From a virus, in IMG/VR virus record IMGVR_UViG_3300028607_003725, positions 12,011 through 76,010 of that record: a stretch of DNA of 64,000 nt, one strand, 5' to 3'. The notes beneath the pieces were generated by a model. The model searched no databases. It was given only the letters and a program-made list of their open reading frames with translations, and was not told where the DNA came from. Numbering within the stretch: the first letter of the stretch is position 1; every line of letters starts with the position of its first letter. The translations under genes and the position numbers were made by a program. Of the stretch, positions 474 through 34,867 are shown piece after piece.

Positions 474-1082
474 ATGGATATATCAAAGAAAATAGCCGAA
501 TGGAAAGCCAAATATGGTTCAGTCTTTATAGTTTCTATTGAAGATAAGTCCATTTATTATAGAACATTAACTGCTTGGGAAATCCAAAGTATAATTGATC
601 TCACTAAACAAAACAAAGCTTCCTTAGATATAGAAGAGTCTACGTGTTTATTTGGAGTATTAGCTCCTAGTCCTTTACCTACCTTTAGTAAACCTGGCAG
701 TATTTCCAGTTTAAGCGAAGAGATTTGGAATAAATCAACTCTGTCAGCTGATATTATGGCAAAAACTATAAAGGATAGTAGAGAGTGGAGTGAAAGTAGC
801 GTAGACCAAAATTATAATTTAATTATAGCAAGTGTTATGTGTAAGCTAATGCCCTCGTTAGACTTAGCTCATCTCTTGGAGTTACCTACCACTAAACTTG
901 TAAGGCTGGGAGCAATAGTAGAAAAGATAACAGGAGAACAATTCTTAGAAGGAGAATTACTTAGTAAACAGGGAACTAAGAAAAGCATGGGTTCTGATAG
1001 AGTTACTAATGAAATGGCAGATAAAACAGCAAATCTGTTGGCGAATGCTCTTAAACAGCAAAGAACAAAGGCTAAGATATAA
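474..1082 (+). CDS. Putative tail assembly chaperone, paralog 2 (202 aa)
   Basis: WKAKYGSVF..IYYRTLTAWE and GVLAP..PGSISSLSEEI parallel the motifs of ORF 19..387. Stop overlaps the next start (TAATG). Confidence 0.55.
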   Translation: MDISKKIAEWKAKYGSVFIVSIEDKSIYYRTLTAWEIQSIIDLTKQNKASLDIEESTCLFGVLAPSPLPTFSKPGSISSLSEEIWNKSTLSADIMAKTIKDSREWSESSVDQNYNLIIASVMCKLMPSLDLAHLLELPTTKLVRLGAIVEKITGEQFLEGELLSKQGTKKSMGSDRVTNEMADKTANLLANALKQQRTKAKI

Positions 1083-7000: not shown

Positions 7001-8950
7001 AAAGTTAGTGGACATTTGTCAGAACAAGAATCAGCACAACTGAGTAATTTAGAAGGTTATCACAAGGCAATGATGAGAAAGTATGAGATGTATCCTAGAA
7101 GGTTTACATTAGATAAACTTTTAGATCCGGATGCGGAGTATCAAAATCTATCCTCCAATGAATATATAGAACCAGCAGATACTTATTCATTAGCTGAAAG
7201 AATAGCTGGTGCTTCATGGGAGTATGCTACCCATCTTAGATCTCCTATACATTCAAAATTATTTGGAAGATACTCTCCAGAGGAACAGTATGATAGATTT
7301 GTAATGTATGGTGTTCCTTTTCAATCATGGGCAAGACCTTATGATACTTTTTTGAAACCCTATGCTAGGGGACTAAGGTCCGTTACTGATCCATTGCAAG
7401 GAGCTATGTCTTTTGCAACGGGAGGATTAATATTTGGAGGAGGCCCTGGGGCCTTAGCTGGAGCAGCAATAGGTGCTGCTTATGGGTCGATGCACGGAAT
7501 GTATAGAGCAATTACTGGTGACACGTATCGCCCACAGAACTTTAAAGATAAGGTAGAGATGCAAGAGTACTTTGATACAATTGAGTATATGAAAGCTGAG
7601 CAAATGTATATGGCTACAGGAAATCCAGATTATAGACGACAAATGGTAGGGACAATGAGAGGTTGGATTGAAACAAGTGGTGGTCAGTTTATGACAGTAC
7701 CAAATAGTGGAGGTATACAGGGCCATTATGGATATGATCCTGGAAGTTTGTTTGGAACCTCATCAGGACCAGCAGCCAGAGCTGCAAGGTTAATGAATAA
7801 TCCATATGCCCAAGGAATTGGGACTGATCAAGGGTTCGGATCACCGTGGAAGGGATTGGCTAATGTTTATCGTCGATTATTTAAAAGTGAAAAAACAATA
7901 AAAATATTTAGAGGAGTTGATAAGTGGCATAGAGGACAAATGGTACAACAGGGTAACTTTGTCGGAGGAGGAAAATATACTCAAAGTAGTCGTGCCCCTG
8001 CATCTCCGATGTATATACCTAAATCTGAAACAGCACTATATACTTCCGGTAGTGCTAAAGATGCAATGTCTTACGGAAGACGAGGCAGACGACCTGGAGC
8101 TCCTGAACCAACGTTGCTTGAATTTGCTGTTCCAGAAACATATGTTAGCAAAGCTGCAGTACAAATTAAAGGTCGTGATTTTAGTCATTATGTTTTTGAC
8201 GAGGGCATACCTAAACGTTTTTTAAGGAGAGTCTATTCCCCAAAAACAAGCCCCCAGAGTAGAGCCTTAAAAAAAACACAGAATCCAGCAGCTAAGAGTA
8301 TAGGTGGAGACAAAGGTTTTGGATCTCCGTGGCAGGGAACAGATGACCAAGAAGCTCTTAACTATGATGCAAATATTAATGTATTCAGCGGCTTCTCTGC
8401 TTTAGCTGCTTGGGATAGACCTTTTTGGACAGCATTCTTAGAGACTCCTGAAGATAAAAGAGATAGAATATTAGATCAGGTAGATACACGAATGGGTGAT
8501 ATGCTAAAAATTGCATGGGGCAGAGGTGAAGAAGTTGCAATGCCTTCAATGGATGTGTTTTTTAGTAATTATAAAAAACCGTCAGCATTAGAACCAATAA
8601 TGGGACCTGATACTGATATATCTGATTATATTACCGTTACTGCCAACTCAAGCGGACTAGATGCTCATGATTTTGGTTTTGGATGGAGAGATCAATTAAG
8701 ACGAATTCAAGATTCTGCTAATGCGATTTTACCGATTAATATTCATGGAAAAGACACTCCTGCCTTTGAAGCATCGGCAGTGTCACAGGGGGACATAAGT
8801 ACCGCTTTAACAAAAGTACTAACAAGGATGGGATATGAAGGAGCTAGAATACAAGTAAACTCTATGATGTCCGAAAGAGATGATACCATTCTTAAACTTA
8901 ATATAAGACGAGATTCAAGTATAGATATTATAAAGGCGTTATATGGCTAG
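1082..8950 (+). CDS. Tape-measure-like virion polyprotein 1 (2622 aa) with intein, PD-(D/E)XK nuclease and ART-like cassette
   Basis: Follows chaperone-like genes. Long helical K/R/A-rich body with Gly/Ala-rich hydrophobic segments (GLAIGGLAGGMVGSGIPGAIVGAMV; GGLIFGGGPGALAGAAIGAAYG). Embedded enzyme motifs listed separately. Confidence 0.72.
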   Translation: MATDDYIDDLVNPEEQGESTIAKGIGQAATTLGMFMGIHMAAMFIVTKGKMRAFSALQKSTIPRIRAAATRAATTTHSLTDFIATVGQGKGTVSRLAQSVYASSTSKTAETLRAGWKDISAYEKIGKFRELSRANKTTIVERSVGKYLREAAVFMPSFYIAEHNIGILHDGPEKEAKPAWYNLPGHAIGFAKFVPHMLAIDLGFRGVLHGAKIAASPLRGMLDPLEHSIANSPIADAAVDAYKWAERGAYREKQIAGMKIGDIIDHMGVAKDAFVKSLKSPTRTKMWRRDKEVFSGYERTTNSLYKVYTHHRQHIKVLRSQLYTKKLERYDKRIQKAGLTTEESFRHNFSDFVKFMDEPGISGRTDYQEALYKSNRAASGNELLGKQYYNENAKTPFIARILGLKRAKASDYKAGEKTLGKIYDTASKDKWNEGTDTILGKRKKDFVSKLLSNNTFIQERSGQSVNLDYLDPRYWATKGLNSFPTILGYGVIDLFPFKVMTRRPGDRVMLASGQVPLTPSQQTDAFGRKLFQKESRAGELHVTYKNVYNFSSEFNDGSRGLIMRRAGDKHYSLWDFQGSQGANVADGWVQVGKNIKLALRSDSPKGQRVHYEGLVSATDKNTRMPGEFSSNPFMRFMQEKLSLLDNKGSFPSIFRNLQMVMPEGMQNFFNVSDAVRGSRSRKILEDLKKLSQHKVDDIVQSSHKQMQMLDIVNRTKALSERVRRRSFDSTLSDDYFFNDIIKFLDTNMPGDFLKGKKIRSVDDIFDLASHIRRNVGESNLNMSERELLRVDALLNEARLSKDVLRREVHPELPVEKLKRFIYDYSVNFSRTNNLGKHGIEERMLNKAIKAFENQRITKQQLTDLEVSIFSTDFREVIRDTDFSKGRLLEKIGKDDVSKVIDSIKKGLVNKFSGAADGRSVIDTALANTGMFETAYSKAIDTGIPDLIDTLQLTMDSNPWVAYPTGFKEVLGLGLRWGISTVDKLVSSFGLGWDKGRFSTPGEVIGLQGRRLATFSAALLGYSAVDSVTDASGAFDGTFLDEGLTVGLADQAVRLRMLAAKTYDVLGVDNAARYMEGLMPGSMNVLPGLAIGGLAGGMVGSGIPGAIVGAMVNAYLGPQLKEGPLSFLSIAPPLAPFVSDLTKSYDEVQDIYEGKELLARRKGAGWTLGQTPIEGGRIEGWELHWYPKLKSQYKATPVLYGSKVEQFLAKDVPLLDFSIMDIIDPQYLTYKHYENRPYLIPDTPFTEVPIIGPVLGATLGRAYNLVHPLGQVDPMHVQEAASAFMKGNSYDWKGGAQDTFGPQYRGLGPAGVGLADRQPGQPNIGNIVLSPYDIKPLLAESVYKGWIEWMGLPGFITSAVAWGGDEPFTNVPIAPAATDMDSFARSYWDSNAGDMALTNELFRRFVPRPRTSYETVDLIHNAMPGWIPEHLRTGDPYCLLPDTLVETTNGLTRSEDITDGMLVKTMYGRFYPVSNTVSRPVEEEIYCITLPGLKDFELKVTGEHPFYIKQGDEYKWVLAKNLTTEHRVTYPLLQIQLNNIIDTNIEIDVEAKMAKLLGLLARWTKWGSTLEYRDEIPDNITKEIDSLVKLLSIDLELIKTIVYEHQSDGMAVPLVTSDLAIVLNYLEPFRVKSSTNEIKYRFHSQKAAYNTWTGLLQNKIFSFINNDTLTIRNQFAAEIAYLLDIDIKVTEFEKPYCSFSLVDSKVGPLAILSIENIRKEYYEGNVHTIEVSDDVTYCLPGAIVHNSKITHGELYLPGEGYEAAFNPDLTFPVGMSRLGRSAYDQALGMIGLSNIAEDQEEILEKGTAIHKMVQNQLMMMGATTRIEALVTDPSANLRSYVDVMLKDPRGNEMPLEIKSISAKGFERLDRPKYSHKIQLNSYLAVMGVNRGKFLYVSREDPTKTKQFSLQFDPDMWEQTLGKLREARYLAQEFLSQGYGRAAEGYSYLDRARVLLNSAPYSKEYRETFSLLEEQKVSGHLSEQESAQLSNLEGYHKAMMRKYEMYPRRFTLDKLLDPDAEYQNLSSNEYIEPADTYSLAERIAGASWEYATHLRSPIHSKLFGRYSPEEQYDRFVMYGVPFQSWARPYDTFLKPYARGLRSVTDPLQGAMSFATGGLIFGGGPGALAGAAIGAAYGSMHGMYRAITGDTYRPQNFKDKVEMQEYFDTIEYMKAEQMYMATGNPDYRRQMVGTMRGWIETSGGQFMTVPNSGGIQGHYGYDPGSLFGTSSGPAARAARLMNNPYAQGIGTDQGFGSPWKGLANVYRRLFKSEKTIKIFRGVDKWHRGQMVQQGNFVGGGKYTQSSRAPASPMYIPKSETALYTSGSAKDAMSYGRRGRRPGAPEPTLLEFAVPETYVSKAAVQIKGRDFSHYVFDEGIPKRFLRRVYSPKTSPQSRALKKTQNPAAKSIGGDKGFGSPWQGTDDQEALNYDANINVFSGFSALAAWDRPFWTAFLETPEDKRDRILDQVDTRMGDMLKIAWGRGEEVAMPSMDVFFSNYKKPSALEPIMGPDTDISDYITVTANSSGLDAHDFGFGWRDQLRRIQDSANAILPINIHGKDTPAFEASAVSQGDISTALTKVLTRMGYEGARIQVNSMMSERDDTILKLNIRRDSSIDIIKALYG
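5390..6316 (+). mobile_element. Intein, 309 aa, with degenerate LAGLIDADG-type endonuclease region
   Basis: Block A CLLPDTLV (Cys1), block B VTGEHPF, block F VHTIEV, block G IVHN followed by Ser+1. Exteins join as TGDPY|SKITHGE. Central MAKLLGLLARW resembles a decayed block C. Confidence 0.92.
6479..6870 (+). other. PD-(D/E)XK (RecB/Cas4-like) nuclease domain in polyprotein 1
   Basis: KGTAIH (6491-6508), E (6557), YVD (D at 6602), EIKS (6644-6655), QLNSY (6710-6724), GKFLYVSRE: canonical order and spacing. Confidence 0.85.
7817..8338 (+). repeat. Duplicated peptide motif IGxDxGFGSPWxG (7817-7855 and 8300-8338) flanking a 148-aa cassette
   Basis: IGTDQGFGSPWKG and IGGDKGFGSPWQG. 28/39 nt identical, differences mostly at third codon positions. 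Confidence 0.9.
7856..8299 (+). other. ADP-ribosyltransferase-fold-like domain, catalytic status uncertain
   Basis: IFRG (7904-7915), LYTSGSAKDAMSYG, LLEFAVP and HYVFDEGIPKRFLRRV match the strand order of ART-fold domains. The usual catalytic Glu position appears to hold His. Confidence 0.55.
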
Positions 8951-11900
8951 AATAAATGATATAGAACAAGAACCAATATTTTCTCCTACCTATAAAGATC
9001 CGGAGAGAAGGGCATTAAGCTTAGGTATTCTTTTATCTCTTCCTACATTATTAGGAATAGTACAAAGTAGAGCTAAATTAATAAAAGGTGGTGTCTTTCA
9101 GAGTATGGCAGGTTTTGGTTCAGGAGCGAAGGCCAAGAGTGTACTACTTAAACGGATTGAGGCACTAGCTAATACTCGGCAAGCCGCTCTTGGTGAAATT
9201 GGTTCCTCAATCTCAGAACAACTTAAGGCAAATACTGATTTAATAAATAATCTTATTAGTGATCATAGTGCTGCAGAATTACATTTTGGAATTGCGGGTG
9301 GTCGTCCTTATAAAGTTACTGGACCGGGTAGCTTGTTACAACAGGAGCTATTCACAGGATCAGCCACCTGGGACACTGCGCAGCATAATCTATTAATAAA
9401 ATCGAAGGACGTAGCTCATGCTAAGTATAAAACTGCGCTAAGTGATTGGTGGTTTGGTAATATGCAATTTACAGATAAAAGAGGAGCTTATGGGCAGGTC
9501 CGGGACAGTATCCTCTCTTTTCAGGGAAACTATCTGAAGCATACTCCTCGTAAATTGGAGGAGTATCTTGTAAATGTTCACGATGTTGTGCATAGAATAT
9601 TATTACCGAGATGGCAGAATGGGTATGCTCCAGGAACATCGTATGATATAAATTTAAAAGGCGCATTAATTGAAAAAGATATTCCTATACATAAAGATTT
9701 AGTACAGGCAGCTAATGACTTGGCTGAAGCCCGAAGAAAGCTTGCTGACTTTCATGGCAATTATCAATGGTCAGGAGAACAAGTACATAAAAGATTAATA
9801 GAACTTGCTGCACAAGAAACTAAATCCCAAATAGGTGAGGGTTCTGGTTTTGGACCTTGGAGTAAACCTTCGAGATTTTCTGCATTCGATAAGGGCGCAT
9901 TAAATCCTGAGTTTATGTCTATGTTAAAAAATGATGAGTCGTATCGTCTAAATTTTTATAAAAACTTAGAAGCTCTTTATAATAGAGTAAAAGGGAATAC
10001 AATAAATCTTCCTCCTTGGGCAACAGGGGTTTCTAGTGAAAATCCATTTATTTTAAGTGATACGATGACTGCGGAATCTACTGACTTTAGAAATAAGTTA
10101 TTCCCAGGTAGAGAAAATTATAGTTTTACAAATGCCTCGGTAACAGAATTAACAGAAAAATTAGAAAGCAGAAATACTGGTTTAACTAAAGAACAAATGA
10201 AACATGTTTTGAGTCCGGAGAGATGGGGAGCTTATCATGACTTTCATAAAAAATCATTCGAGAGCATTGATCCTGTTTTTGCTGAACAGGTCCATGGACA
10301 ACGAGGAAAAGCCCAACATCTAATAGCAGTAAGAGATTCTTTTCAAGCAGAAGTTAATAAGATAAAACGGAATGTAGTTGACCTGCTCAGTATGGAAAGA
10401 ACATCAGGGAATCCAGCATACACTGCCCATATAGAGGCTTTAGCAGAGGCAGCAGGTATGGAGAGAAATCAGTATATTACTTTTATAGAGGGGTTAAAAA
10501 TAAAAGCTGAAATTGGAGCTGATCTTAGCGGAAGAATGCCCTTTAAACATGCTAAGATTATAATCATCAGACCAGGACATACACCCATTCCATTAAACAT
10601 TCCATTATCAGAATATGGAGCTTTTTTACCAAAAGCAAATTCTAAAATAAACACTTCTCCTTTGTTTTTAGATGCATTTGTACAGCCTACCATACAAAAT
10701 CTTACATCTATAGATGTAGCTATGATGAAAAAAATGCAAGTTAATGTTTCACATTATTTCAGAGATCTAGTACAGTCAGGGTATCAAAGTTCTGAAAAGG
10801 TACAGGGTCTTCATAAAAGTTATTGGGGATCATTTACGTCACTAGTACATACTGAAGTTGCTGGAATTAATCAGAACTTTTTTAGACGACAGAAAGTAGT
10901 TTCTTCAACTCTGGATATCCTAAGAGGTGCAGTAAAAGAAAGTGGAGTAGGATCAAGAAGATGGTACGCTAAGTTTACTGCAGGCTGGGAAGCATTACAA
11001 GAGATACAAAATATAAGTAAGAGACAATCCACAATTTTAGGTTTAGATTTTGAATTCAATGCTTCTAAAACCTTAGGCTTTGATGCAATTCAAGGACTAG
11101 TGGCAAAGGAAACTACTCGTCCTTATCAGGCTGCTTATCAAATAACTAGAGGGTCTAAAAAACAATTATTTAATCATTGGATTAGACCAGATAACTGGGA
11201 TAATATACGGAATAATGTAAAACGATTTATGATTCAACAAGAAGGTATGGGGGGAATGATTGAGTATTCTAAATTAGAGGCTATAATGCAAGGAGCACAG
11301 GATCCTCTTTCTAAAGGAGAGGCAGTTGTAGATTTTAGTATTGGATTTGATGAGCAGGAGAAAAATTGGAGATTTTTTACCGATGAACAAAAAATAGATA
11401 AATCTATATTTAAAAAAGGATCTATTCAATCTGTTAGAGTTCATACGGAAGCCGGTTCTTTTGTTGAAATAGCTAGAGAAATATTTAGATCACCTGATGG
11501 AGGTATCAAGTTTTTAACTCATGGAGGAGAAGAGGCAGATCTTATCTTATGGAATAAAAGAATAACTGGTATATTAGAAGAAATTAAACGAGGAAGAGAC
11601 TTTGGCATAAGTGAGGGTGAGATAGGGTTGCTAAAAAGATTACATAAGGAAACCTCATTAACTAGTTTGTTAGCAAGAGGAGCATCTTTTGATACCCACT
11701 CAATGGCAATGGTTGTTTTAGCAGAGGAGGCAGGCAGCACTAAGTTTGGATTAACTGATATTTTTCATAAGCTTCTTACCTTATCTGTAGATACTAAATT
11801 AGTTACTAGAGATGACGTAAGTAATGCTTTGAAAGCAATTGGAGGAGAAATAAAAGAGGGAAAATTGACAAAAGCAGGTAAAGCTGCATTAAAGGAATTT

Positions 11901-14900
11901 CCATTAACCGTACGTAATTCAATAAAACAACATATTCAAGCAAGTCCTCATGTTGTAAAAGAGCTATTATCTATGGGATTAGCAGGGCATCATAATCCGG
12001 CCTTTGATAATATGATTACAGATTTCAATTCTCTACTGTCAGTACAGCATTATCAAAGAACAAAAATTTACAATCCAGAACTGTTTACTCGATGGGTACA
12101 AGCATATGAGGTTGCTAAACGAATAACAACCGGAAGATCGTTATCTTCGTTCCAGGCTATAGACGTAGTCAGACAACATGAAATGTTTGATCCTGATAGA
12201 ATAAAAAGAGAGGGTGAATTTAAATTATCTTTATTTGGTGGAACTCCTGCATCAGCCGCACAAGCTCATGGCTATTTAACTGGACCAGAAACCTATTTGC
12301 CTTTTGGAAGATTAGCTAATTTACAGAAGCAGACTCAACAAGTTATGAGTGGAAGATTACTTCCTACTTTAGATTATACGGCAAGTAAAGATGTTATGAT
12401 TGAAACAGCTAAACCTATTTTAGGCCATAGACTGTTAAGTACATCTCAACAATTTTATGCTGAGGAAGATGCAAGGCTGGGAGTGTCTGCTAATAGATTT
12501 GGACTACAAGTAGCGCCCTCAGACCGAGGTGCACCTGGTCTTACTACTAGACGTACTTTATCCGTACTCTATTTATTAGGAGATAATAGAATTGTAGGAG
12601 AGGACTCTGGGCTTTGGGCTAGCAAAGAAGCTATGAAAAATGCTATTAATTTTCCTAGAAGCGCTTTTGAGGCAGTAAAGGTAGATATTCCAACAGGATT
12701 GCTTAGTAGTACAAATTTAGATAAAATGAATATGTCTCTTTATGATTTTATGCAGTCAATAGGTATTAGCGAAAGAGTTATAGAAATAACAAAGCGTAAA
12801 ATAGGAGAAGATATGTCGCTTAGGGCCTTTATAGAGGCCCATAGTCAGCAAGGTGGAGTTGCAAAAGAGCTATATAGTTCTGAAGAAGCTATAATTAGGG
12901 AAGCTACTGAACATTTTAATAAAACAGGAAAGGACTACATAAGACCTGGAGATCATATAGCGATAGGAAAAGGTCCAGTAAATTTACAAGTAGAACAGAC
13001 CGGTCAAAGATTAACTACTATTACTAGAAGTCCTATTAGTAATCCATTTAATTCAGATGCTCTTATAAAATCTATCACTTATGATACTGAAAAAAATCAA
13101 TTTATATTTAATCTTCTAGGAATAAGTAGACCTAGTATTTCTAAGTGGACATTTCAATTAAAGACAGCAAAGCCAATGCTAGTTGGGGTTGCTAACAATA
13201 CTTTAGTAGGAAAAGGAATTGATTTAATAGTTGCAATGAAAAAACCGGATGCTGCTCAGACGTTAAACATTCAAATACGTAGAGTATTACAGCATATGTA
13301 CAGAGAACGACTACCAATAGAGGTACAAGTAAAGAGAATGAAAGAAGTTCTGATGAAATCATTTAATTTGGATTCTGCAGAGCTAGATGCTATGTTTACT
13401 ATTCGCAAAAGTCCTATTTTGGATGCTAGTCAACGAGAATTATATAAGAGTTCGTTTTTAGCTACTGTTGAATTGAAAGATCCAACTGTTGCAAAGTTAG
13501 ATAGTACTAATATTTATCCTAAAGTAGCTGCTCTATTAAAAGAGCAAGGTTTAACTATTAGAAGTATGCAAAAGATTTTTGTTGAGCAACATGCCGATGT
13601 CTTACAAGAAATATTCACTGATCTTAAACTTCCTGAAATTAAATCAGAACTTAGTAGTTTATATAGAAAAGCTATAAATTTACATAAAGAAAGCTTAAAT
13701 AAATGGATAAAATCTAATCAACATATGAATATTGCAGGTCACGAGGGGTTTCATAGATTTATAGCTGCATCAAAAATGAGAGAAATATTAGGGAAGGGCT
13801 TGGCTTTTCACGACATGGCACTACTACCAAACAGAAGTGCTATGTTAGATGTATTAAATAAAAATAAGCAGCTAGGGCAAAGGCAAATACTTAAAGATGT
13901 TTTTACAAAAATAACAGAGCATGAAGTTGTAAATGAAATGTTCTTTGCTAATGCAGCATTTTTAGTTGTTGATGAAGGAGTTTTACTGGAAGATTTATCT
14001 GATGTATCTAAATATAAAGGTACACTTAAGAATTTTTACGATACCCCTACGCAGAAATCAGGAAGTTTTTCTTTATGGGAGATGTTAGTACGGATGGAGG
14101 CAGTTAAGGGCTCTAAGTTTGCTAATAAGTATATGATTCCTGAAATGATATCCTCCATGGGTTGGTATAATACTAATATCAGTTCATCATTAAGTGTTCA
14201 TAGTAAGTTTCTAGATATGTTAAAGGAGGGGTACAATGCTCCTTCTACTATAACTAGTGATCAGATTTATACCCCAGGAATGGCGGCCTTAGGACACGAT
14301 ATATCTATTTATAGATCTTCTATGCTAGGTGTATCGGAATTAGATGAATTAGTTAAAGAAGGTCTTTTTATTAAAAAAGATATAGAAGTTTTATTAAGTG
14401 ATTCTAAACTAATGCTTATTTTGAAGCAACAGTTAGGTGAGGCTTTTGTGGATAGTCATGAGTTTCAGACAAGAAGAGAATCATATATATCAGCGTTACG
14501 AGATCGTATTCAACGAGGTACAGGAAAGGGTTTTCTTTCTGGGGAAAACTTAGGTAAGATGAATATATTTAAAACAGATAAAGGTGTCAATTATATTAAA
14601 TTTGGTCTTCCTGATATAATGGCTGCTATTGAAAAAAGTGAATCTATCAGCCCTGAATTAAAAACACGCTTAAGAAAAACAGATTTATTTAGAAATGAGA
14701 AAAGTGTATTCTTTTCAAAACTAAGAGTTGCTCTGGAAGGAGTAGAAAGTAATCAAATGGAACGCTCTATGTTAGCCAAAATAGATTGGCTTAATGTTGA
14801 CAAAGGATTTCCTAATACTGCATTAGAAGATACATTAGCGAAACTAGAAGTTGCACTATCTGATCATGATAATCCTAAGAAACTTAGAGATCTTTTAGTT

Positions 14901-17780
14901 AATTTAGGAGAGCTTAAGGCGAGCTCAGCTTCAAAGCTGAAGGACAAGAACCTATGGGAACTTGCTAATAACTATAAACAAAGAGTAGTTTCTGGCCGAG
15001 AAGGACGACTAGCAGAAGTAATGTTTCCTCATTTAAAACATGAGTTTCCATTACCAGTAGGAGATCAGTATCTAATTACAGATGAAAGTGCTGCAAAATT
15101 AAAAGTAGCTAGTGCTATAGAAAGTTATCAAACACAAATAGATAAAATTGTAAAAGATCTTGAGCAAGAAGGAAGATCTCTTAAATCCTATGAAATTAAT
15201 GATAGGCTTTCTGAAATACAATCTTCCCACGAAGCATTTATGAGGAAGTTAGCTACAGGCCATATTAGTGCATTGAAAGGATTATCAAGTGCATCCTGGA
15301 AAAGTCAAAGAGCTTATGCTCCAATTATGTATGCCAAAGCAGTGGATGTTGGTATTTTATTAGAGCAAGGACTAGGTGGACTATTAGCTGACATCAAAGA
15401 TAAAAACATAAAAGGAATGGATATAAACTTCTTTGATAAGAAGATTGCATCCCCTAGCAATCCTATAATGGAAGCTATTAGAAGTAATAAATTTAGAACA
15501 CTCATTAAAGAAGCTCTTCTTTATCAGGGTAGTGATCCAACAACCGGTGAAGCTATTCTCAGCCTGGTAGGGGAAGAAGAAGCTAGAAATATACAAAGAT
15601 TGTCTTCTGAAATATTCAAACACTCTAAGGACAGCGTTACCTGGGGTGAATATTTAGGAAATATTTTAGGAATAGAACATAAACTAGGACTGAGTAATAA
15701 ACTTTTGAATAATTTATCATTATATAAGGAGATAGGTACAACAGGTTATAAGCATTACTTTGCTAAAGGTTTTGGTATAGGCGAAGGCATTATGTCCCAT
15801 AGTATGTTTGCATCCTTTCTTGAAAAAGGAAATCCAGGAGCTTTATCCATGGTACGGAAACCAGACTTGTTTAGAAGTGTACTAGCGGGTAAGTCTCCTA
15901 TTAGAGAGATGTTTGCACGAGCTCCTTTATTTGAGAACTGGTTTGGTGCACGGTTACGTAATGTTTACTTAATGCCTGATAAAATTTTTGAGCAGATGCA
16001 CCTTGATCCTAGAGATACTAAACGAATGGTGGCTGTGAGTGCACTGGATATCTTTCTACACGGTGGTGACTTTGATGGGGACTTGGCTAATTTTATGATA
16101 AATAACTCTAGTATGTATCGTAGAGAGTATTTTGGAAAAGATGCAGCATGGACCGGAGAAGTTAATGATGTGCAAAGAGTTAAGCAATGGTTGAATTTTA
16201 GAGTGCAACAAGCCGGTAGGGGTGCTCTTACAATCCAGGGACAGGACTATATTGGAATAGAAGAAACAGCAGATGGAAGACTACTTGTTCGGCACGATTC
16301 TAAGGAAAAGTTTGATTTTACTAAAAAAATGGAATTTTTAACCGAACAGATGGATGATCCTATGAAAAACATGTCTCATGCTGAAAAAAATAGAGTGTAT
16401 ATGGTACAACAAGTACTAACACCTGTCTTTGGACAAAAAGCAAAAATGTTTCATCATTCTTTTCTTCCTACAGGTGGGATTGATCCTGCAATGAAAAACG
16501 AAGTAGTGCAACGTATACAGGAAACTATACGGAAACATTATAAAGATCCTAAAATTTTGCAGGATTTGTTAACTGAATTAGGACATTTACAAGATATAAA
16601 ACCGTTGTCTCATGCTGAGTTAAAACTACAAGCTTCAAGGTACTTGGATAGTATAACTAATGCATGGGAAAGACTCCAACGAGAATCAACAATACCTTTA
16701 TATGAACAAGTTATAACACAAGATGGAACTAAGCAAAACCCTAAAATTTCAACTACAGTAAGACCAGGTACTATGAAGAAATCACGATTTGCTATGTTCT
16801 TTGATTGGCACAATAAGGCCATGATCCACGGTGTCCCAATAGAGAAAGCGAAAGCAGGACAACTTAATGATTGGTATAATATGACTGTTCAGTTTTCAAA
16901 GTTAATGTCTGGAGACAATCTTAGAGATACTAAGAATATTCATAGGTATTTCTGGGACACAAGTCCATTTACAGAGCTTAATCTGAGCACATGGTTTGTT
17001 AATCCAGGAGCGGATCATGGTATTCCGGAACATAAAGTATTGGAGATACAAGGCTTAGCGTTTATGGAAACACAAGAGACGTTTGAAGATATAATGAGAC
17101 TTAAGCAAGCGGAGCGAGCTGTGTCTAAATCTTCTCTTCTCGGAGGACTTAAGTCCGCAGCATACTGGACGCTTTCAAAAAATCCTAGAAATGCAATATA
17201 TGGAGCTCAGGTTGATCTATTAAGTGAGCAGAAAAATTGGATACACAGCGGACTGACTTCTTTGCTTGGAGTTGAACGAGCTGGTATGATTACAGATGCA
17301 GAAAGTGCGGCGTTTTTTACTATGCGATCATTTGAAGAAAGAATGGCCGGAAATAGGGCCGGTACAGAATCAATGATTAATTGGTTAAAACAGTATATGT
17401 CAGAAGGAAAAATAAATAAATGGGGAAAGAGAGCATCCGTAGGAGTTCTGGCAGCGATCTTATTTGATCCAAATGCAAATTCTTTATTGCTTCCTGATTT
17501 AGAAGTTAATGGGGAAAAATATGACATACCTTCATTTAGGGAGCTAAGTAAATCTTACAGGAATAGACTCATGAAGATCAGAAGTACCTCCCCTCCTGTA
17601 ATAGATAAACTTCTTAGAACATTTGGTTTACCGAATAGTGTTGGTGCTCGAGCTGTGCACGGACCCCCTTTACCTCCTAGACCTAATAGGGTCTCGTACT
17701 CTTATAGAGAACGTAGAGATAAAATATTAGGTATTAAAGAATATGCCAGAAAAGTTAATGGTATAATGTTAGGACAATAA
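8943..17780 (+). CDS. Giant virion protein 2 (2945 aa): putative single-chain two-barrel RNA polymerase fused to a DEDDh exonuclease
   Basis: GGDFDGD (D2376/D2378/D2380) preceded by VRKPDL. Beta-like GEDSGLW, IRPGDHIAIGK, SKWTFQLKTAK and GIDLIV occur in the order found in RpoB. DEDDh motifs upstream. Hydrophobic segments near both termini. Confidence 0.72.
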   Translation: MARINDIEQEPIFSPTYKDPERRALSLGILLSLPTLLGIVQSRAKLIKGGVFQSMAGFGSGAKAKSVLLKRIEALANTRQAALGEIGSSISEQLKANTDLINNLISDHSAAELHFGIAGGRPYKVTGPGSLLQQELFTGSATWDTAQHNLLIKSKDVAHAKYKTALSDWWFGNMQFTDKRGAYGQVRDSILSFQGNYLKHTPRKLEEYLVNVHDVVHRILLPRWQNGYAPGTSYDINLKGALIEKDIPIHKDLVQAANDLAEARRKLADFHGNYQWSGEQVHKRLIELAAQETKSQIGEGSGFGPWSKPSRFSAFDKGALNPEFMSMLKNDESYRLNFYKNLEALYNRVKGNTINLPPWATGVSSENPFILSDTMTAESTDFRNKLFPGRENYSFTNASVTELTEKLESRNTGLTKEQMKHVLSPERWGAYHDFHKKSFESIDPVFAEQVHGQRGKAQHLIAVRDSFQAEVNKIKRNVVDLLSMERTSGNPAYTAHIEALAEAAGMERNQYITFIEGLKIKAEIGADLSGRMPFKHAKIIIIRPGHTPIPLNIPLSEYGAFLPKANSKINTSPLFLDAFVQPTIQNLTSIDVAMMKKMQVNVSHYFRDLVQSGYQSSEKVQGLHKSYWGSFTSLVHTEVAGINQNFFRRQKVVSSTLDILRGAVKESGVGSRRWYAKFTAGWEALQEIQNISKRQSTILGLDFEFNASKTLGFDAIQGLVAKETTRPYQAAYQITRGSKKQLFNHWIRPDNWDNIRNNVKRFMIQQEGMGGMIEYSKLEAIMQGAQDPLSKGEAVVDFSIGFDEQEKNWRFFTDEQKIDKSIFKKGSIQSVRVHTEAGSFVEIAREIFRSPDGGIKFLTHGGEEADLILWNKRITGILEEIKRGRDFGISEGEIGLLKRLHKETSLTSLLARGASFDTHSMAMVVLAEEAGSTKFGLTDIFHKLLTLSVDTKLVTRDDVSNALKAIGGEIKEGKLTKAGKAALKEFPLTVRNSIKQHIQASPHVVKELLSMGLAGHHNPAFDNMITDFNSLLSVQHYQRTKIYNPELFTRWVQAYEVAKRITTGRSLSSFQAIDVVRQHEMFDPDRIKREGEFKLSLFGGTPASAAQAHGYLTGPETYLPFGRLANLQKQTQQVMSGRLLPTLDYTASKDVMIETAKPILGHRLLSTSQQFYAEEDARLGVSANRFGLQVAPSDRGAPGLTTRRTLSVLYLLGDNRIVGEDSGLWASKEAMKNAINFPRSAFEAVKVDIPTGLLSSTNLDKMNMSLYDFMQSIGISERVIEITKRKIGEDMSLRAFIEAHSQQGGVAKELYSSEEAIIREATEHFNKTGKDYIRPGDHIAIGKGPVNLQVEQTGQRLTTITRSPISNPFNSDALIKSITYDTEKNQFIFNLLGISRPSISKWTFQLKTAKPMLVGVANNTLVGKGIDLIVAMKKPDAAQTLNIQIRRVLQHMYRERLPIEVQVKRMKEVLMKSFNLDSAELDAMFTIRKSPILDASQRELYKSSFLATVELKDPTVAKLDSTNIYPKVAALLKEQGLTIRSMQKIFVEQHADVLQEIFTDLKLPEIKSELSSLYRKAINLHKESLNKWIKSNQHMNIAGHEGFHRFIAASKMREILGKGLAFHDMALLPNRSAMLDVLNKNKQLGQRQILKDVFTKITEHEVVNEMFFANAAFLVVDEGVLLEDLSDVSKYKGTLKNFYDTPTQKSGSFSLWEMLVRMEAVKGSKFANKYMIPEMISSMGWYNTNISSSLSVHSKFLDMLKEGYNAPSTITSDQIYTPGMAALGHDISIYRSSMLGVSELDELVKEGLFIKKDIEVLLSDSKLMLILKQQLGEAFVDSHEFQTRRESYISALRDRIQRGTGKGFLSGENLGKMNIFKTDKGVNYIKFGLPDIMAAIEKSESISPELKTRLRKTDLFRNEKSVFFSKLRVALEGVESNQMERSMLAKIDWLNVDKGFPNTALEDTLAKLEVALSDHDNPKKLRDLLVNLGELKASSASKLKDKNLWELANNYKQRVVSGREGRLAEVMFPHLKHEFPLPVGDQYLITDESAAKLKVASAIESYQTQIDKIVKDLEQEGRSLKSYEINDRLSEIQSSHEAFMRKLATGHISALKGLSSASWKSQRAYAPIMYAKAVDVGILLEQGLGGLLADIKDKNIKGMDINFFDKKIASPSNPIMEAIRSNKFRTLIKEALLYQGSDPTTGEAILSLVGEEEARNIQRLSSEIFKHSKDSVTWGEYLGNILGIEHKLGLSNKLLNNLSLYKEIGTTGYKHYFAKGFGIGEGIMSHSMFASFLEKGNPGALSMVRKPDLFRSVLAGKSPIREMFARAPLFENWFGARLRNVYLMPDKIFEQMHLDPRDTKRMVAVSALDIFLHGGDFDGDLANFMINNSSMYRREYFGKDAAWTGEVNDVQRVKQWLNFRVQQAGRGALTIQGQDYIGIEETADGRLLVRHDSKEKFDFTKKMEFLTEQMDDPMKNMSHAEKNRVYMVQQVLTPVFGQKAKMFHHSFLPTGGIDPAMKNEVVQRIQETIRKHYKDPKILQDLLTELGHLQDIKPLSHAELKLQASRYLDSITNAWERLQRESTIPLYEQVITQDGTKQNPKISTTVRPGTMKKSRFAMFFDWHNKAMIHGVPIEKAKAGQLNDWYNMTVQFSKLMSGDNLRDTKNIHRYFWDTSPFTELNLSTWFVNPGADHGIPEHKVLEIQGLAFMETQETFEDIMRLKQAERAVSKSSLLGGLKSAAYWTLSKNPRNAIYGAQVDLLSEQKNWIHSGLTSLLGVERAGMITDAESAAFFTMRSFEERMAGNRAGTESMINWLKQYMSEGKINKWGKRASVGVLAAILFDPNANSLLLPDLEVNGEKYDIPSFRELSKSYRNRLMKIRSTSPPVIDKLLRTFGLPNSVGARAVHGPPLPPRPNRVSYSYRERRDKILGIKEYARKVNGIMLGQ
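11034..12020 (+). other. DnaQ/DEDDh 3'-5' exonuclease-like domain with insertions
   Basis: ExoI LGLDFEF (D702,E704), ExoII-like FLTHGGEEADL (D866), FDTHSMA, ExoIII HNPAFD (H1017-x4-D1022). Confidence 0.65.
12560..13250 (+). other. RNA polymerase beta-like (RpoB-type double-psi barrel) region
   Basis: GEDSGLWAS (E/D at 12600-12605; cf. RpoB FEDSILVS), IRPGDHIAIGK (12939-12971; cf. GDILVGK), K1401..K1407/K1410 (cf. GDKMAGRHGNK), GIDLIV (cf. PVDIVL). Confidence 0.55.
15843..16100 (+). other. RNA polymerase beta'-like catalytic region
   Basis: MVRKPDL (R2305; cf. NRAPTL) and HGGDFDGDLANF (DFDGD at 16068-16082; cf. NADFDGDQM). Confidence 0.78.
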
Positions 17781-17781
17781 T

Positions 17782-17988
17782 ATGAGACGAGTAGTTGAAA
17801 TAACTCTGCCTACTATTCCCTACGATAAGGATATTTCTGATATAGTAGGTTATCTCCGAATGGTGCTGTCTGAATTAACAAAAACATCTGTAGAAATCCA
17901 AATAAATGATATAGATTTTACAAACAAAATTGGTGTTTTTAATAATAATCGACGTCGTTCATTCCCTAATAGACAAAATAATATATAA
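17782..17988 (+). CDS. Small hypothetical protein (68 aa) resembling the C-terminal end of polyprotein 1
   Basis: Starts 1 nt after the preceding stop and overlaps the next start (TAATG). Shares DIS..L-x2-VL-x9-IQ-[VI]-N with 8792-8860. Confidence 0.6.
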   Translation: MRRVVEITLPTIPYDKDISDIVGYLRMVLSELTKTSVEIQINDIDFTNKIGVFNNNRRRSFPNRQNNI

Positions 17989-20900
17989 TGGCTACTAATC
18001 CTACTGATGTTACATTTATAGACCCTGTAGACAAGTCTACTGTAAGACGTAAGTCGTCCGGTGAATTTAGTCAGATTGATCAACTAAAGGATATTTTTGA
18101 GAAACTACGAAAGATTATTTATGAAATAGAAGCAGGGCCAGATGGTTTCAATGCCATGGGTCCTTCTTTAGATAGTACGTTTACTACTACAAGTACAGCA
18201 ACAACCGGCTCTATGACTATGCAAGTAGATAGAGGTTTAGGGGCCCAGCAGTTAAGAGTTAGCATTATTTCTACTATGATAGATTCTTTGCTAATTCCAA
18301 ATAGTGTTCATTATACCCCTTTATTAGAATTTAAAGCCAAGATTCTTGATGAATCTTTGATTAAAAATAATGCAGATGTTACTTCATACTTTTCAGAAGA
18401 ATGGCAGGTACTATTGCATTATATTTATTTATTAGAAACAATATACTCAGCACATGCGGATAGTCTTTATCTTGAATTAATTCCTCTTAAGAATGTAGGA
18501 GGACCTGGAGCTTATGGTTTAGGAAGTATGAACATGAGCGCCATGGAGGTTCTTAAGTCTAATATTCTGCCTCCTTCTATAGTTTCTATAAAGGTAACTT
18601 CTACTAAAGACTATCTCAAGGATGGAACATACCAGAATATTTTAAAAAGTAGACATATTGAACCTTTTTATATGACACCTGAGTTAGCAGATAAACTGTT
18701 AACAGGTTATACTCTAGAAACTCCTCCCCATACCAGAGAAATGCCACCCATGTTTGCAGATCATCATATTAATGTATTTGATGGTACTGGTACAAAGAAG
18801 TATTACGCAGCACAGGGCGGTGTAGCGCATAATGCTATAATTTTTATGTTATCTTTTAGTAAAGCTCCTTCCAAGTGGCTGGAAAATGCTATGGATAATG
18901 AGGATGAATTTATAACTCTAGGGGAAGATATTGGAGCAGGGCCGGCTGATTCGCATTTAGATGTAATCTTATGGAAAGATGCAGCTTCCAGAGATGACCC
19001 AGTAAATAGACAGGCCATTCGAAAGATAATAACGACAATATTAGCTAACGGAAGAAAAAATATGTCTACTTTAGATGTGGATGATTATGTAATGTCAGTT
19101 GAGTCCCGGAAAGAATTCGAATTGTTTATTGACACTTACTTCGTTGAGTTAACTTTGGAGGAGGCCACAACACCTCCCCCTAATGGTAAATTTTTTATAA
19201 ATGGAACATGGTTTACGGATACACCTTTGTACCTACATACTTGGGCAAACGCTAATACTCCAGGAAGTCCAAATTCTGGCAAATTTTGGACAACTACAAA
19301 TTATGATTATTTACGTAAGACTTCATTGTTTGATAAGTTTTTTATAGGAACTAAATCGTTACGTCAATTAGCTAATGACGCTGGTAATTATCCTACAATA
19401 GGAGAACGCAGAGAAAAGTTTGTAGAATTTATAAACTCTTGGCACCTACTTGATAAACCAAACTCTATTAGAGCACTACAGAGCTTAATTGTGGATCATT
19501 TTAAAAACAATAGAAGTGCTTTTGCAGATTTAATAAGTTTTGGTGAGTTAAGAAATTTGGTTTTAGACTATTCGTTACATAATATCTCTCCGACTCATCC
19601 TTTGTACGTGCTTGACTCCTATTATAATATGCAGTCAATTACTTTAATAACCCCTACGGCTAAAATAGAAATAGCAACTCAAGATTCTATAGGACAAGAC
19701 TTATCCGGTCAAATACAATCTATAGAAAATTCAGAAGTAACTATTAATGTAACTGATAGCTTAACTGTTTCGAAAGTTCCAGGTTCAGAAAGCATTTCTC
19801 CTATAATAGACCAAAATGAAATAGAAACTTCAGACAAGGATATCTTACCATTTAAAGGTCTATTAGTGATGTCTACTATTTCAGCGGCTAATAGTGGAAT
19901 CGTGTATGAAGTATTAGACAGGTTTGGAACTATATGGAACCAAGGAGAAACTGCAATAACGTTTGCGATAAAAGATTCAAAAGGTAGTTTAGATCCTGGG
20001 AAATTGGGACTCAAAGGGCTGAAGTATGCCACTATCTTTCCGTTCTTTGATGAAAATGGTAATTCATTTCCTTATTCAAAAAATTATGCAACTATGACTT
20101 GGATAGAAGAAACTAAAAGTCTTTACTTCATTACTCATGATGAATATGGGTTAACACAATTTGATTATCATGCAGTAGCTTCAATTACTTTAGAGGATTC
20201 TAGTTTTACAGATGAACAGGTACCACAATGGAGAGTTGTTTTTGAGGCATATGAAGCAACAGGTGCCCATGTTTTTGATTTATATGGAGGACAGTTACTT
20301 GTATTTAATATTCCAAATATTCCGCAGGGGGCATTAATAACAGATAGAGTACAGCTCGGTATTACCTCTGTACCTAGTTATCCAGAAAAGGTTAAGAGTA
20401 AGTTATTTATTCAAGAGACCGAGCCTGTTACGCTAATGACTATTCCTGTTACTCAAAAGTTCGATGTTGAATACGATCTCTGGGGCGGCGACGGCTTTAA
20501 GAACCCCGATGGTAGTACACCGGTTGTTATGGACCCATCATGGTTTGAGGATAAGGATACTGAAGAAGAAGCATTAGATGATGGTGGTGGAACTATTTCT
20601 CCATCAATAACAACAACTTTCAGTATTGGCAGTAAGGAAGTACCAATTGATGAATATTTAAGAGTACTAGAAAAAATTCAATTTAATAAGCCCTCAGTTG
20701 CAACAGACATTTCAGATATAATACAATATAATACGGAAACGGGTGAATCATTAACCAGATCTACTTCACTACCAGCTAAAGCTTTACAAACGGATAGTCA
20801 ATTTAAATACGTAAGACCTGCTAATCCAGAGGACACTGGAGTAATGTATATTGGTGATATACTTTTTCATATACCTCCAGTTAATCTGAGGTTCAGCACT

Positions 20901-23900
20901 GTTAACCAAACAATGTCGATTCCTACTATGAGAACAAAAGGGGATCCTATTAATACAAGTAATAATAATATACCTAAGGTAGATATAACAGTATATTTTA
21001 AAGGAACAGAGCAAATAAATAACACTCTTAGACCTTTGCTTGCTCTTTCCCAAGTTATGCCAACTACCTCTGTTCAAAATACTACCATTTTTGATTCGTG
21101 GATAGGTAGGAGAGATAAACTTTCTGACAGTACCTTAGACGAAATAGATAGATTTTTACCATTACCGTGCTATTTAGAGAGCATAAACGTCGGTACTATT
21201 CCCGGTTTTCCGAATACACTGCAGGCACACATTACTTTGATTCAAATGGACATTTCACCAATGGTTCCAGTTTTAACCTATTGGAAATATACATCCGATG
21301 CTCTAAATCAAGCTATGATGAAAACAACAAGGCAATCTATAAGTAATACAATCTTAACTATAAAGGACAAAGAGACTCCAGGGCTTACCAAGAATCCTAA
21401 AAATGATAGTGAAATCAAAGTACTTAATTCAGTGGGTCAATTGTTAACAATAAAACTCCCGGATAAAATGGATCAAGTCGATGACGACAAAATTACCGTC
21501 TATCCCCAAGAATCATTTCCCTTTAGAAAACTATATAGAAATAGATTATTAGAGGAAGAGAATACTTTTAGTAGAGTAGTGAAAGATCCCTTCTTACATT
21601 GGAATAAATATCTTCCTGCAGAAAATTCTACTTTGTATTTGACATATAAATCCCCAAGATATTTTAATGATGAATGGTATAGTTTTAAAAGTAGATTTGA
21701 TCTATTAGCTCAAAATATGAATGGAGTCAGATTATTATTTCAAATAACAGGTGCAGGCCTGACAGAAGAAGCAAGTATATCAAATCTGTTTAGAAAAACT
21801 GAAGATTTTGGACTACGAGAGGCCATAGAATATATGGTAGGAGCATTATCTTGGGTAAAAGACTGGGACGCCACAATTAGTATTCTTAATAGAGAATGGA
21901 AAAAAACTGTTGTAGGTATGGCTCGAAGATTTGGATCTGAGCCATTAATGATAACATTCAATAATTTGGATGGTACAGAGGAAACAGTAAATTTAGCCGA
22001 CTGGGTAGATTCTACTAGTGTTGATTTAGAATATGTTGATGAAGACGGAAATATAAAACAACCAGTTAGAGATATTATAAACTCACTGGTTAAGAGATTT
22101 GCAGAAGACCTGCAGCCTGATAAACGAGCAAAAAATGGAAATGTTTTACCGGCGTCTCTTGATTTTGTTGAAACTATTATTCAAAATATCCTAATTAATC
22201 CTATATTTGATGAAGAAACTCCGACCAATCCTCTAAACTATGAAGATATACAAATAGGACTTGGATGGTCTGAGTCTCCGTCTGTAGAAAATATAGATCT
22301 TTTAGTTAAACAAGGTTTATTTCCGACTATGACTAAGGAAGGCAAAAAACAAAGAGGAAAAGTTGTTAGATATCATTTTCAATCCGTGATTCAATCAATA
22401 AGTTGGTCATATGCAAATAATTTATCTCCTATGTTTTTAGCCTCTTCTACGTTGCCGACTTATCAGCATATGGGAACAGCTAATGCTATGGTAACTATAT
22501 CTCTTAGAACACGAGATGAACGATTAATAAAAATATTAACAGATATGAAAGAAGCAGCTAATGCAATTGGTTCACAAATATTATCTGGAAATACAGAGTT
22601 GGTAGGTTTTGATGTTATTTCACTATCAGGGGCTATGGATAAAGTATACTCCGGCCATTTATTAAACTCCTTTGGCTTTAAACATTGCAGTATTGCAAGT
22701 ATGGAACATAGAAATATGGAAGGTTTTCCCGGGTGGTGGGAAGTAAATATTGATTTAATTGAAAATAATACTGTTCTAAGATCATGGGAAAACTTATCTC
22801 TTGTTCCATCAATAGGTTCAAATACTATCAATATACTTAAAAAAGCTTTATTTGCTATTCCTTTTGTTGTTGATTCAGGTGCGGAATTTGATCCTACACT
22901 AGCCGGTCTTCAAGGTACAGGAAAAGAAATCACAATAAAAAAAGATATTGGTGGTAAGAAGACGTATAATAATAGAACCCGCTCCGTCACGACAGCTAAG
23001 AACGTTGTAACAATAAAGACAACAATTCCAGAGAAACCTCCTTCAGAAAAATTAAATTTTGATGAAATAGCACTACAAGAACTTCCATTGGAAAGTATAA
23101 TAGATCACTTAGTAAGAAGGGTAGTTCATGTCAGGACAGGCAAGAACTATGCTAAAGTAACATTAAAAGAAGTTGAAAGATCTGGTACTATAAAAGCAAC
23201 TTATAAGGAGTGGACAATAAATTTTGATAAGGATGGAAATGAACTAAAAGGACGATATAGCAAAGATGAAATAGCTAGAGTAGAGGAAAAATGGGCATGG
23301 AAAGTATTCCAAAGTAAAAGAAAACCAAGCTATAAGGGTAATGTTGTTCTTGATCACTCGAAAGCTCTGGGTCCTTGGTTAGAAAAGTTGGCTGATATAA
23401 CTAAGTTGTTTTCAGAGTATGACAAATATCTTAAAGGTGCAGATGTTAATTATCCTCAGTATACTAACGAAGCACAAGGGTTACCCGATAGACAAATAGC
23501 ATTTGGTCTTCAAGCAGCCGTCGAAGATGCAATAGGTGCTTGTATTGAGATGACTTGTTATTTATTTGATTCAGCAGCATATAACTTAGTCGAGAGATCT
23601 TATAGAGAGGTTGAAGACAGAATTGCAAAGTTTATAAAGATGTATCCTGAGGCATTTTCATCTTCTGGAACTTTACCTTTAAGAGAGGCAATATTCAGTG
23701 CAGTGAAATATGGTCCATCTCTGGCCAAATATGATTATTCCGTCCAGCCTTCCACCACATTTTTTACAAAAGGACTCAGATATCATATTGTTAAAGGATT
23801 TTTTATAGACCCCATTAATGCCTCTATTAATTTAAATACTGATGCATTAACTATTGAAGCGGGTATGTTTAGTAATACTTTATCTAATAAATTAACACCA

Positions 23901-34400: not shown

Positions 34401-34580
34401 ATGAGTGTAAATAAAGAATATAGACTTTTAACTAAAGTACCAATAGGTACAAAGATGATTGTTAACAAAACAGGTAAGTCTGTAAAACTTGATGAAATAA
34501 GATACTTTCCTACTCGGTATAAATGTGATGATGGTAATTACTATTATACACATGATGTGGATATATTATGGCATATATAA
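34401..34580 (+). CDS. Small hypothetical protein (59 aa), not in the supplied ORF track
   Basis: ATG immediately after the previous TAA. MSVNKEYRLLTKVPIGTKMIVNKTGKSVKLDEIRYFPTRYKCDDGNYYYTHDVDILWHI. Fills the gap and overlaps the ferredoxin start by 13 nt. Confidence 0.62.
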   Translation: MSVNKEYRLLTKVPIGTKMIVNKTGKSVKLDEIRYFPTRYKCDDGNYYYTHDVDILWHI

Positions 34581-34867
34581 TAGTAGATCCATGTGTAAGT
34601 ACTTGCGATACAGCTTGTGTGGAAGTTTGTCCCGTGGATTGTATTCATGGTCCTGAAGACACAGAGGGTTTAGGTGCAGAAGCAAAAGAACCTGGATTTA
34701 ATCCAGAAGGTAAACAACTCTATATCAATCCAGAAGAATGTATTGATTGTGGAGCTTGTGAACCTGAGTGCCCAGTAGAAGCTATTTACGAAGAAGATTC
34801 TGTTCCAAAGGAATGGGAAAAATTTATAGATAAAAATTATGAGTTTTTTGGACAAGAAAGACCCTAA
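34568..34867 (+). CDS. fdxA: Dicluster ferredoxin, FdxA-like 7Fe/8Fe type (99 aa)
   Basis: CVSTCDTACVEVCPVDCIH and YINPEECIDCGACEPECPVEAIY; C-terminal VPKEWEKFIDKNYEFF typical of FdxA-type proteins. Confidence 0.93.
   Translation: MAYIIVDPCVSTCDTACVEVCPVDCIHGPEDTEGLGAEAKEPGFNPEGKQLYINPEECIDCGACEPECPVEAIYEEDSVPKEWEKFIDKNYEFFGQERP

Follow-up and report, generated by a model that had tools for sequence, protein, structure and literature searches.

Virion-delivered RNA polymerases (RNAPs) start the phage programme without the host enzyme; to our knowledge they come from a handful of lineages, namely N4, the phiKZ-like phages, the crAss-like phages and P23-45. Here we analyze a 64,000-nucleotide stretch of viral DNA (the window), bases 12011-76010 of the 77,674-bp IMG/VR viral contig IMGVR_UViG_3300028607_003725, and in particular its giant open reading frame (ORF) g2 (P0001). 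On balance we favor the reading that g2 is a giant virion-associated protein, that residues ~2040-2730 of it form a very diverged RNAP beta'/Rpb1 catalytic module, and that the whole is a fused beta-beta' virion polymerase. The phage probably brings a polymerase of its own into the host cell. The basis of this reading is a beta'-like fold, the invariance of catalytic residues, a position in the tail module and conserved synteny; from these we infer catalytic activity, the position of a second barrel, packaging, ejection and a role in early transcription.

8943..17780, + strand: g2, the ORF with the polymerase-like module, 2945 aa.

Precedent for such a gene comes from gp96 of the Thermus siphophage P23-45, a 5002-aa tape measure protein with an exact DFDGD motif (PMC10770324). 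As proposed for g2, gp96 is a giant protein at the tape-measure position that holds a two-barrel-type polymerase with the exact DFDGD, and no sequence similarity to other RNAPs is detectable in it outside this motif (PMC10770324). It has been proposed to act in pre-early transcription once ejected, as we suggest for g2 (PMC10770324). Given this precedent, a polymerase hidden in a gene at the tape-measure position is not new in kind. The tail of P23-45 is long and non-contractile, whereas the g2 phage has sheath and Baseplate_J genes. Furthermore, the gp96 polymerase is N-terminal (aa 327-1124), flat, clamp-less and of the single-subunit clade, whereas the g2 module is found in the C-terminal third of its protein, where a hairpin precedes the barrel, and its match is to multisubunit beta'. 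An hhalign comparison of the g2 family with gp96 gave no signal (probability 0.1), and tblastn of gp96 returned matches in Thermus phages only.

Phage phi14:2, which is crAss-like, encodes gp66 (PDB 6VR4; 10.1101/2020.03.07.982082), which, as proposed for g2, is a single giant virion protein whose gene belongs to a group of several giants. Besides a DxDxD barrel, gp66 contains a bridge helix and a trigger loop and, like g2, the bulk of the protein is without recognizable homologues. The motif in gp66 is DFDID, compared with DFDGD in g2; its barrels are separated by a connector of ~140 residues, it is closest to QDE-1, and its particle is podovirus-like. The virion RNAP (vRNAP) of the podovirus coliphage N4 is a functional analogue, being giant (~3500 aa), packaged and ejected to start early transcription, but its T7-like single-subunit fold is unrelated to that of g2 (PMC13434306). 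Ejection of a virion polymerase for first-round transcription has been shown for P23-45 gp96, phi14:2 gp66 and N4 vRNAP (PMC10770324; 10.1101/2020.03.07.982082; PMC13434306).

The best structural neighbors of g2 were the beta' subunits of multisubunit RNAPs (RpoC and the split beta' of the jumbo phages AR9 and phiKZ). Common to both, and in the same order, are a hairpin, a barrel with a helical insert, R-x-P, DFDGD and Rpb1 domains 3-5. Unlike these subunits, g2 fails the Pfam beta' models and has its module embedded in a 2945-aa tail-module protein. The elements of the module are as follows.

15081..15275, + strand: long alpha-helical hairpin that precedes the barrel (aa 2047-2111), made up of model helices 28-60 and 63-92.
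15297..16112, + strand: predicted beta'-type double-psi beta-barrel with helical insert (aa 2119-2390), from the AlphaFold (AF2) model.
15918..15926, + strand: R-x-P (R2326-A-P2328), conserved, putative counterpart of beta' NRAPTLH; model strand 301-308.
16068..16082, + strand: DFDGD (aa 2376-2380), predicted Mg2+-binding loop with an invariant Asp triad.
16113..17132, + strand: stretch that follows the barrel (aa 2391-2730), with structure-search matches to Rpb1 domains 3-5.
16377-16463, + strand: YMxQQxLT (aa 2479-2507), a long conserved helix and bridge-helix/trigger-loop candidate.

An AF2 model of residues 2020-2730, calculated on an enlarged alignment, had a mean predicted local distance difference test score (pLDDT) of 75.9 and a predicted template-modeling score (pTM) of 0.67. 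In this model the REMFARAP, RLRNVYLM and MVAV strands are followed by a short helix (LDIFLH), the DFDGD loop and the LANFMI strand, and this succession of three strands, helix, loop and strand is the arrangement found round NADFDGD in beta'. The helical insert of the g2 barrel comprises about residues 2136-2260; cellular beta' barrels likewise hold a helical insert (PMC7824862).

The model was compared with several structure libraries. Against the PDB, the top 50 of 50 Foldseek rows were beta' (bacterial chain D) or plastid RpoC1, with a best E value of 3.7e-3 and a probability of 0.77. Against AFDB Swiss-Prot, the top 30 of 30 rows were beta', and the alignments began at the hairpin and ended shortly after the catalytic loop; in one of them, model positions 29-371 were aligned with positions 152-549 of an actinobacterial beta', spanning the NADFDGD loop. 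The hairpin helices were aligned with actinobacterial RpoC beta' residues from about 152. Matches among the AFDB clusters were mostly annotated "DNA-directed RNA polymerase subunit," and the top rows from the ESM Atlas were beta'/Rpb1 clusters with Rpb1 domains 2-5 that carried PF04983, PF05000 and PF04998 (337-347 residues aligned over model 99-711 in rows 1, 2 and 4). In a VIA search, model 105-711 gave alignments of 286 residues with Pol IV and with E. coli beta'. The BFVD matches comprised a protein of Acinetobacter phage ME3, crAss-like giant proteins, and the RPB1 of African swine fever virus, poxviruses and Marseillevirus. The individual scores are modest, but the agreement of five structure libraries is hard to explain jointly other than by a beta'-type fold. 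The assignment of the DFDGD region to a double-psi beta-barrel of the RNAP beta' type is therefore well supported by modeling and, as judged from the model, g2 is a structural homologue of RNAP beta'/Rpb1 and not a family member by sequence.

An original prediction, made from the letters of this DNA alone, had proposed a divergent two-barrel polymerase in g2. The model bore this out for the beta' half, and the module has a greater likeness to multisubunit beta' than to crAss gp66 or QDE-1. Neither 6VR4 (gp66) nor 2J7N (QDE-1) was among the top PDB structural rows, and the crAss-like proteins in BFVD matched at low probability. Searches of PHROG and of PF05183 returned no match that would place g2 in the crAss/QDE-1 clade. 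The ~450 residues ahead of the DFDGD barrel (barrel A), a low-confidence part of the model, showed no barrel, compared with the ~140-residue connector of gp66.

The best viral structural neighbor of the g2 model was A0A172Q021_2, an uncharacterized protein of Acinetobacter phage vB_AbaM_ME3 (E 4e-3, probability 0.82). The ME3-type group of jumbo myophages has been reported to be without an RNAP (PMC7824862), and A0A172Q021_2 may be another hidden polymerase.

Relatives of g2 were gathered in several ways. A word-indexed search gave two homologues with ~45% identity, and an exhaustive hidden Markov model (HMM) search with residues 1210-2409 retrieved only 21 clusters from 1.84 billion representatives, with no known polymerase among them. 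Two more relatives came from a further search. The conserved C-terminal module of g2 (DPNTNS / GEKYDIPS) was then used as bait, yielding 18 further loci on viral and metagenome contigs. After removal of duplicates, 16 non-redundant full or long relatives (16-46% identity) made up the set used below for conservation. Judged from these searches the family is rare, and none of 50,697 GenBank phages was matched by tblastn with the full-length protein, even with the E value relaxed to 0.05. Two related viral records, which are 28% and 37% complete, were also searched for a paralogue of the polymerase, and each had one copy. One relative has a Peptidase_S26 (signal peptidase) domain (E 2e-20), presumably an insertion, within the part aligned to aa 2020-2730.

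Across the 16 relatives D2376, D2378 and D2380 were invariant, and G2379 had one exception. The loop reads DFDGD, DYDGD or DLDGD, with a single DFDRD. A lone pentapeptide could be due to chance, whereas invariance of its aspartates at such low identity could not, which argues that DFDGD is under selection. The original prediction had singled out DFDGD as its strong beta' motif and had proposed its conservation in homologs, together with AlphaFold and Foldseek, as the check; the Asp triad is conserved, and modeling of aa 2020-2730 placed it in a double-psi barrel that is RpoC-like. The RxP motif assigned to position 2305 fared otherwise, as even the nearest homologues do not keep it. Conservation attaches instead to the R-x-P at 2326-2328, within the block FARAPLFENxFGARLRNVYLMPD, where P2328 was invariant and R2326 had one exception. 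K2120, G2276, I2633 and K2635 were invariant or nearly so, and the two last, both invariant, belong to a PIEKxK block (aa 2632-2637). In hhalign comparisons the DFDGD of g2 was paired with E. coli beta' 460-464. Further inspection by eye suggested that K2120..R2123..AK2132-A-V-D2135 looks like KQGRFRQNLLGKRVD of multisubunit beta', that WKSQRAYAPIMYAKAVDV resembles beta' KQGRFRQNLLGKRVDYS, and that KGFGIGEGIMSHSMF resembles CGLPKKMALELF; these stretches may be equivalent.

The source of g2 is an uncultured phage with a contractile tail. The + strand holds every long ORF of the window, in which two small ORFs are followed by the giants g1, g2 and g3, small genes, Baseplate_J and more large structural ORFs. 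Genes for the major head protein, the tail sheath and a tube-like protein lie upstream of the window genes on the same contig.

1082..8950, + strand: g1, the upstream giant, 2622 aa, with a stop that overlaps the start of g2.
17988..33419, + strand: g3, the downstream giant, 5143 aa, with endolysin-like stretches.
35811..36995, + strand: Baseplate J-like wedge protein, a contractile-tail marker (Pfam PF04865, E 4e-19; PHROG 6, E 4e-32).

Thus, the contractile-tail module named in the original prediction is present, with sheath and tube upstream and Baseplate_J downstream. Between sheath/tube and Baseplate_J a tape measure gene is expected; the three giants occupy this position, and g2 falls in the interval from tube/chaperones to baseplate hub. 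Neither Pfam nor PHROG gave a tape measure protein family match for g2. The g1-g2-g3 order was kept in all relatives examined, close and distant (L004, L008, L011, L012, L014 and L023), and in L008 it is followed by Baseplate_J. The CheckV completeness of the contig is ~41%, from which the whole genome is estimated at roughly 190 kb. No separate beta, alpha or omega genes were seen on this ~41% complete contig.

All two-barrel polymerases require a partner barrel to contribute basic residues. In g2 the candidate is the following region.

12555..13322, + strand: candidate beta-like region (aa 1205-1460), with YLPxxNxIVGED, LxPG(D/E), KxxxxxKxxKG, GKGIxLI, KKPxxAQ and RR.

Barrel B of two-barrel polymerases gives two conserved basic residues to the active site (PMC7824862), for which K1401 and K1410 are the candidates in g2. 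K1410 and R1447 were invariant among the 16 relatives and K1401 nearly so. Residues 1660-2119, a region partly of low confidence, had too few strands for a barrel in either AF2 model; a partner barrel in the same chain, if any, would therefore lie further upstream, where the original prediction had put it. All the motifs that it named occur at the residues given (ED 1220-1221, GDHIAIGK 1336-1343, K1401/K1407/K1410, IDLIV 1426-1430, RKP 2305-2307 and DFDGD 2376-2380). Conservation among the beta-like ones was uneven. The lysines K1401 and K1410 held, as noted above, but only P-G-(D/E) was kept from the GDHIAIGK region, and K1424 of GKG was not conserved. The ED motif was kept in most relatives, with E1220 replaced by Q in three and the motif lost in two.

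The resemblance of this region to RpoB was assessed by hhalign with RpoB and RpoC profiles built from 57-58 proteobacterial loci. When the whole family was compared with whole RpoB, the best match was between aa 1433-1540 and beta 1105-1207 (P 0.06). When aa 1150-1700 were compared with beta 780-1342, the best match was between aa 1405-1456 and beta 1100-1152 (P 0.0074), and a third restricted match, collinear and very weak, paired YLPxxNxIVGED with MPWNGYNFEDS of beta. Controls (reversed profile, wrong subunit) gave P values of 0.14-0.65, the reversed profile 0.65. The validated beta' half itself reached a P value of only 0.032, worse than the 0.0074 of the beta-like region. Docking of aa 1195-1660 with aa 2105-2520 gave a median of 0.18 against a mark of 0.32, which is evidence neither way, and a language-model atlas returned nothing for aa 1195-1760. 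For aa 1220-1430, where the original prediction placed its beta-like motifs, the profile matches to RpoB were weak and in two registers. We put a beta-like barrel at aa ~1205-1460 at about even odds; as a candidate it is somewhat better than the alternatives.

Several observations weigh against a fused virion polymerase. Neither g2 nor the family profiles had an RNAP match in Pfam, PHROGs or PDB sequences, as single sequence or as profile. Searches of the contig with PF00623, PF00562 and PF05183 gave no match, and g2 did not score above the curated cut-off of the Pfam beta'/Rpb1 families (PF00623, PF04997 and related). Proteobacterial RpoB and RpoC HMMs scored the g2 family at noise level, equal to reversed controls; this plain test is without power, as it also misses the structurally validated beta' half. 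The structure E values are all modest (1e-3 to 1e-2), with low global template-modeling scores, and an earlier AF2 model of aa 1660-2859 was poor (pLDDT 57). The candidate beta-like motifs are kept only in part. The two best RpoB matches are in different registers, and a stretch of beta that is specific to proteobacteria contributes part of the signal; with universal beta segments alone, the ED match was gone and the PSRMNIGQ match weakened to P 0.07. A folded protein of ~330 kDa cannot sit in the tail tube, so that "tape measure" can refer to gene position and order only. Finally, the contig is ~41% complete, so that early genes and promoters are not in view.

Some structure searches were set aside. 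Foldseek and VIA searches with the aa 1660-2859 model returned helical-hairpin noise only, and a VIA "wide" search with the aa 2020-2730 model was swamped by the N-terminal hairpin. The language-model atlas gave a weak RNA-dependent RNA polymerase lead for aa 2050-2750 (rank 64, score 0.84).

The alternative that survives best, although we consider it unlikely, is that g2 holds the beta'-like half only and works in a multisubunit enzyme, with the partner barrel supplied in trans by g1, another phage protein or a host subunit. The beta' half of g2 is structurally like multisubunit beta', multisubunit enzymes keep beta and beta' in separate chains, and the beta-like motifs of g2 are weak. Moreover, g1 lies directly upstream with an overlapping stop/start, like rpoB-rpoC, and the best hhalign match of g1 to RpoB, between aa 1039-1086 (about 4196-4339; LDEGLTVG...YMEGLMPGSMNVLP) and the C-terminal motif of beta at 1287-1327, had a P value of 0.015-0.06. 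However, the g1 profile has two sequences over this stretch, which makes the match probably due to chance; the other g1 matches were not collinear, and a Gly-rich hydrophobic segment follows. Neither g1 nor g3 revealed a K..KG or PSRM-like motif, whereas in g2 there are basic residues that are invariant, and hhalign supports aa 1405-1456 better. With one local match, not collinear and from a two-sequence profile, we regard a beta-like barrel in g1 as unsupported.

A second alternative, to which we attach little probability, is that the two-barrel module is active but is no transcriptase, acting instead as a primase or proofreading polymerase on the entering genome together with a DEDDh-like domain. 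Invariant DEDDh-type motifs do occur in the same chain, and a two-barrel core makes DNA in archaeal PolD (PMC10770324). However, the structural neighbors of the g2 module are all RNAPs, PolD DP2 is in none of the lists, equivalents of Rpb1 domains 3-5 are present, and the putative exonuclease fold of aa 695-1030 had no Pfam match. Least probable of all is an inactive relic kept for structural purposes within a tape-measure or ejection protein, as might be suggested by the gene position, huge size, hydrophobic N terminus and conserved C-terminal module, because the catalytic Asp triad, R-x-P, K2120, I2633 and K2635 are kept while the rest drifts to 16-25% identity, the pattern of an active site under selection.

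If g2 is a fused virion polymerase, it would be built into the particle along with g1 and g3 and expelled via the tail during infection. It would then transcribe the first-entering phage genes without need of host RNAP. The same chain would hold the lysine-bearing beta-like barrel further upstream, with about aa 1205-1460 as its most probable site, and the enzyme would then be of the fused beta-beta' type.

Relative to the systems described above, what is new here is a contractile-tail lineage and a multisubunit-type beta'-like architecture with a hairpin and downstream Rpb1-like domains. The module is deep inside the protein, with exonuclease-like motifs in the same chain and within a conserved three-giant-gene module, and the polymerase is completely invisible to sequence profiles. 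The g2 family would add a contractile-tailed lineage to the carriers of virion RNAPs and bears on how often viruses have captured and fused two-barrel polymerases. It also suggests that enzymes may hide in other "giant tail proteins of unknown function."

The remaining features of g2 lie on either side of the regions discussed above.

9012..9068, + strand: N-terminal hydrophobic segment (aa 24-42), from a Kyte-Doolittle scan.
11025..12032, + strand: DEDDh-exonuclease-like motif set (aa 695-1030), with LDFEF, H..EADL, DT and GHHxxxFD.
17415..17777, + strand: conserved C-terminal module (aa 2825-2945), with KRAxIGALA, DPNTNS, GEKYDIPS, LPPxP and ARQVNGILL.

The N-terminal segment was the only hydrophobic one revealed by the scan of g2. 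A single membrane-like hydrophobic segment is also present in g1 (aa 28-46, about 1163-1219), at the same distance from the N terminus. The C-terminal module (~120 residues) may serve for docking in the virion.

In the aa 695-1030 region, D702, E704, D866, D917, H1016/H1017 and D1022 were invariant in the 11 full-length relatives, and the Exo I DxE, Exo II D and Exo III H-x4-D motifs follow in DEDDh (DnaQ-like) order. Pfam gave no support for this set in 17 members of the g2 family. From its motifs we provisionally place the region in the DEDDh (DnaQ-like) 3'-5' exonuclease class, and it may add a 3'-5' nuclease activity.

The upstream giant g1 has a Cas4-like / PD-(D/E)XK exonuclease domain at aa 1797-1930 (about 6470-6871; PHROG 1706, E 8e-17; PHROG 2506, E 3e-11). 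The nuclease of g1, the polymerase and exonuclease-like motifs of g2 and the lysin of g3, a conserved trio, point to a payload of several enzymes that is ejected. A more specific version, in which a fused beta-beta' polymerase and a DEDDh exonuclease in one ejected protein would form a nucleic-acid-processing machine with the nuclease-bearing g1, proofreading or making primers on the incoming genome and going beyond early transcription, is in our estimate a long shot; if true, it would give archaeal PolD its first counterpart among exonuclease-coupled two-barrel polymerases.

An intein-like insert was noted in g1 at aa ~1431-1745, with PHROG matches to intein-bearing families and a Pfam Intein_splicing match (E 8.6e-4) below cut-off. 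The same Pfam family is also on record for the g1 homologue adjoining P0002. In g3, two stretches are like PHROG 20474 "endolysin." At the far end of the window, an ORF of >3302 aa (54094-63999) without any family match runs past the window end. A gene for a 99-aa Fer4 4Fe-4S dicluster ferredoxin (34568-34867, E 6e-10) is at an odd site, inside the tail/baseplate module.

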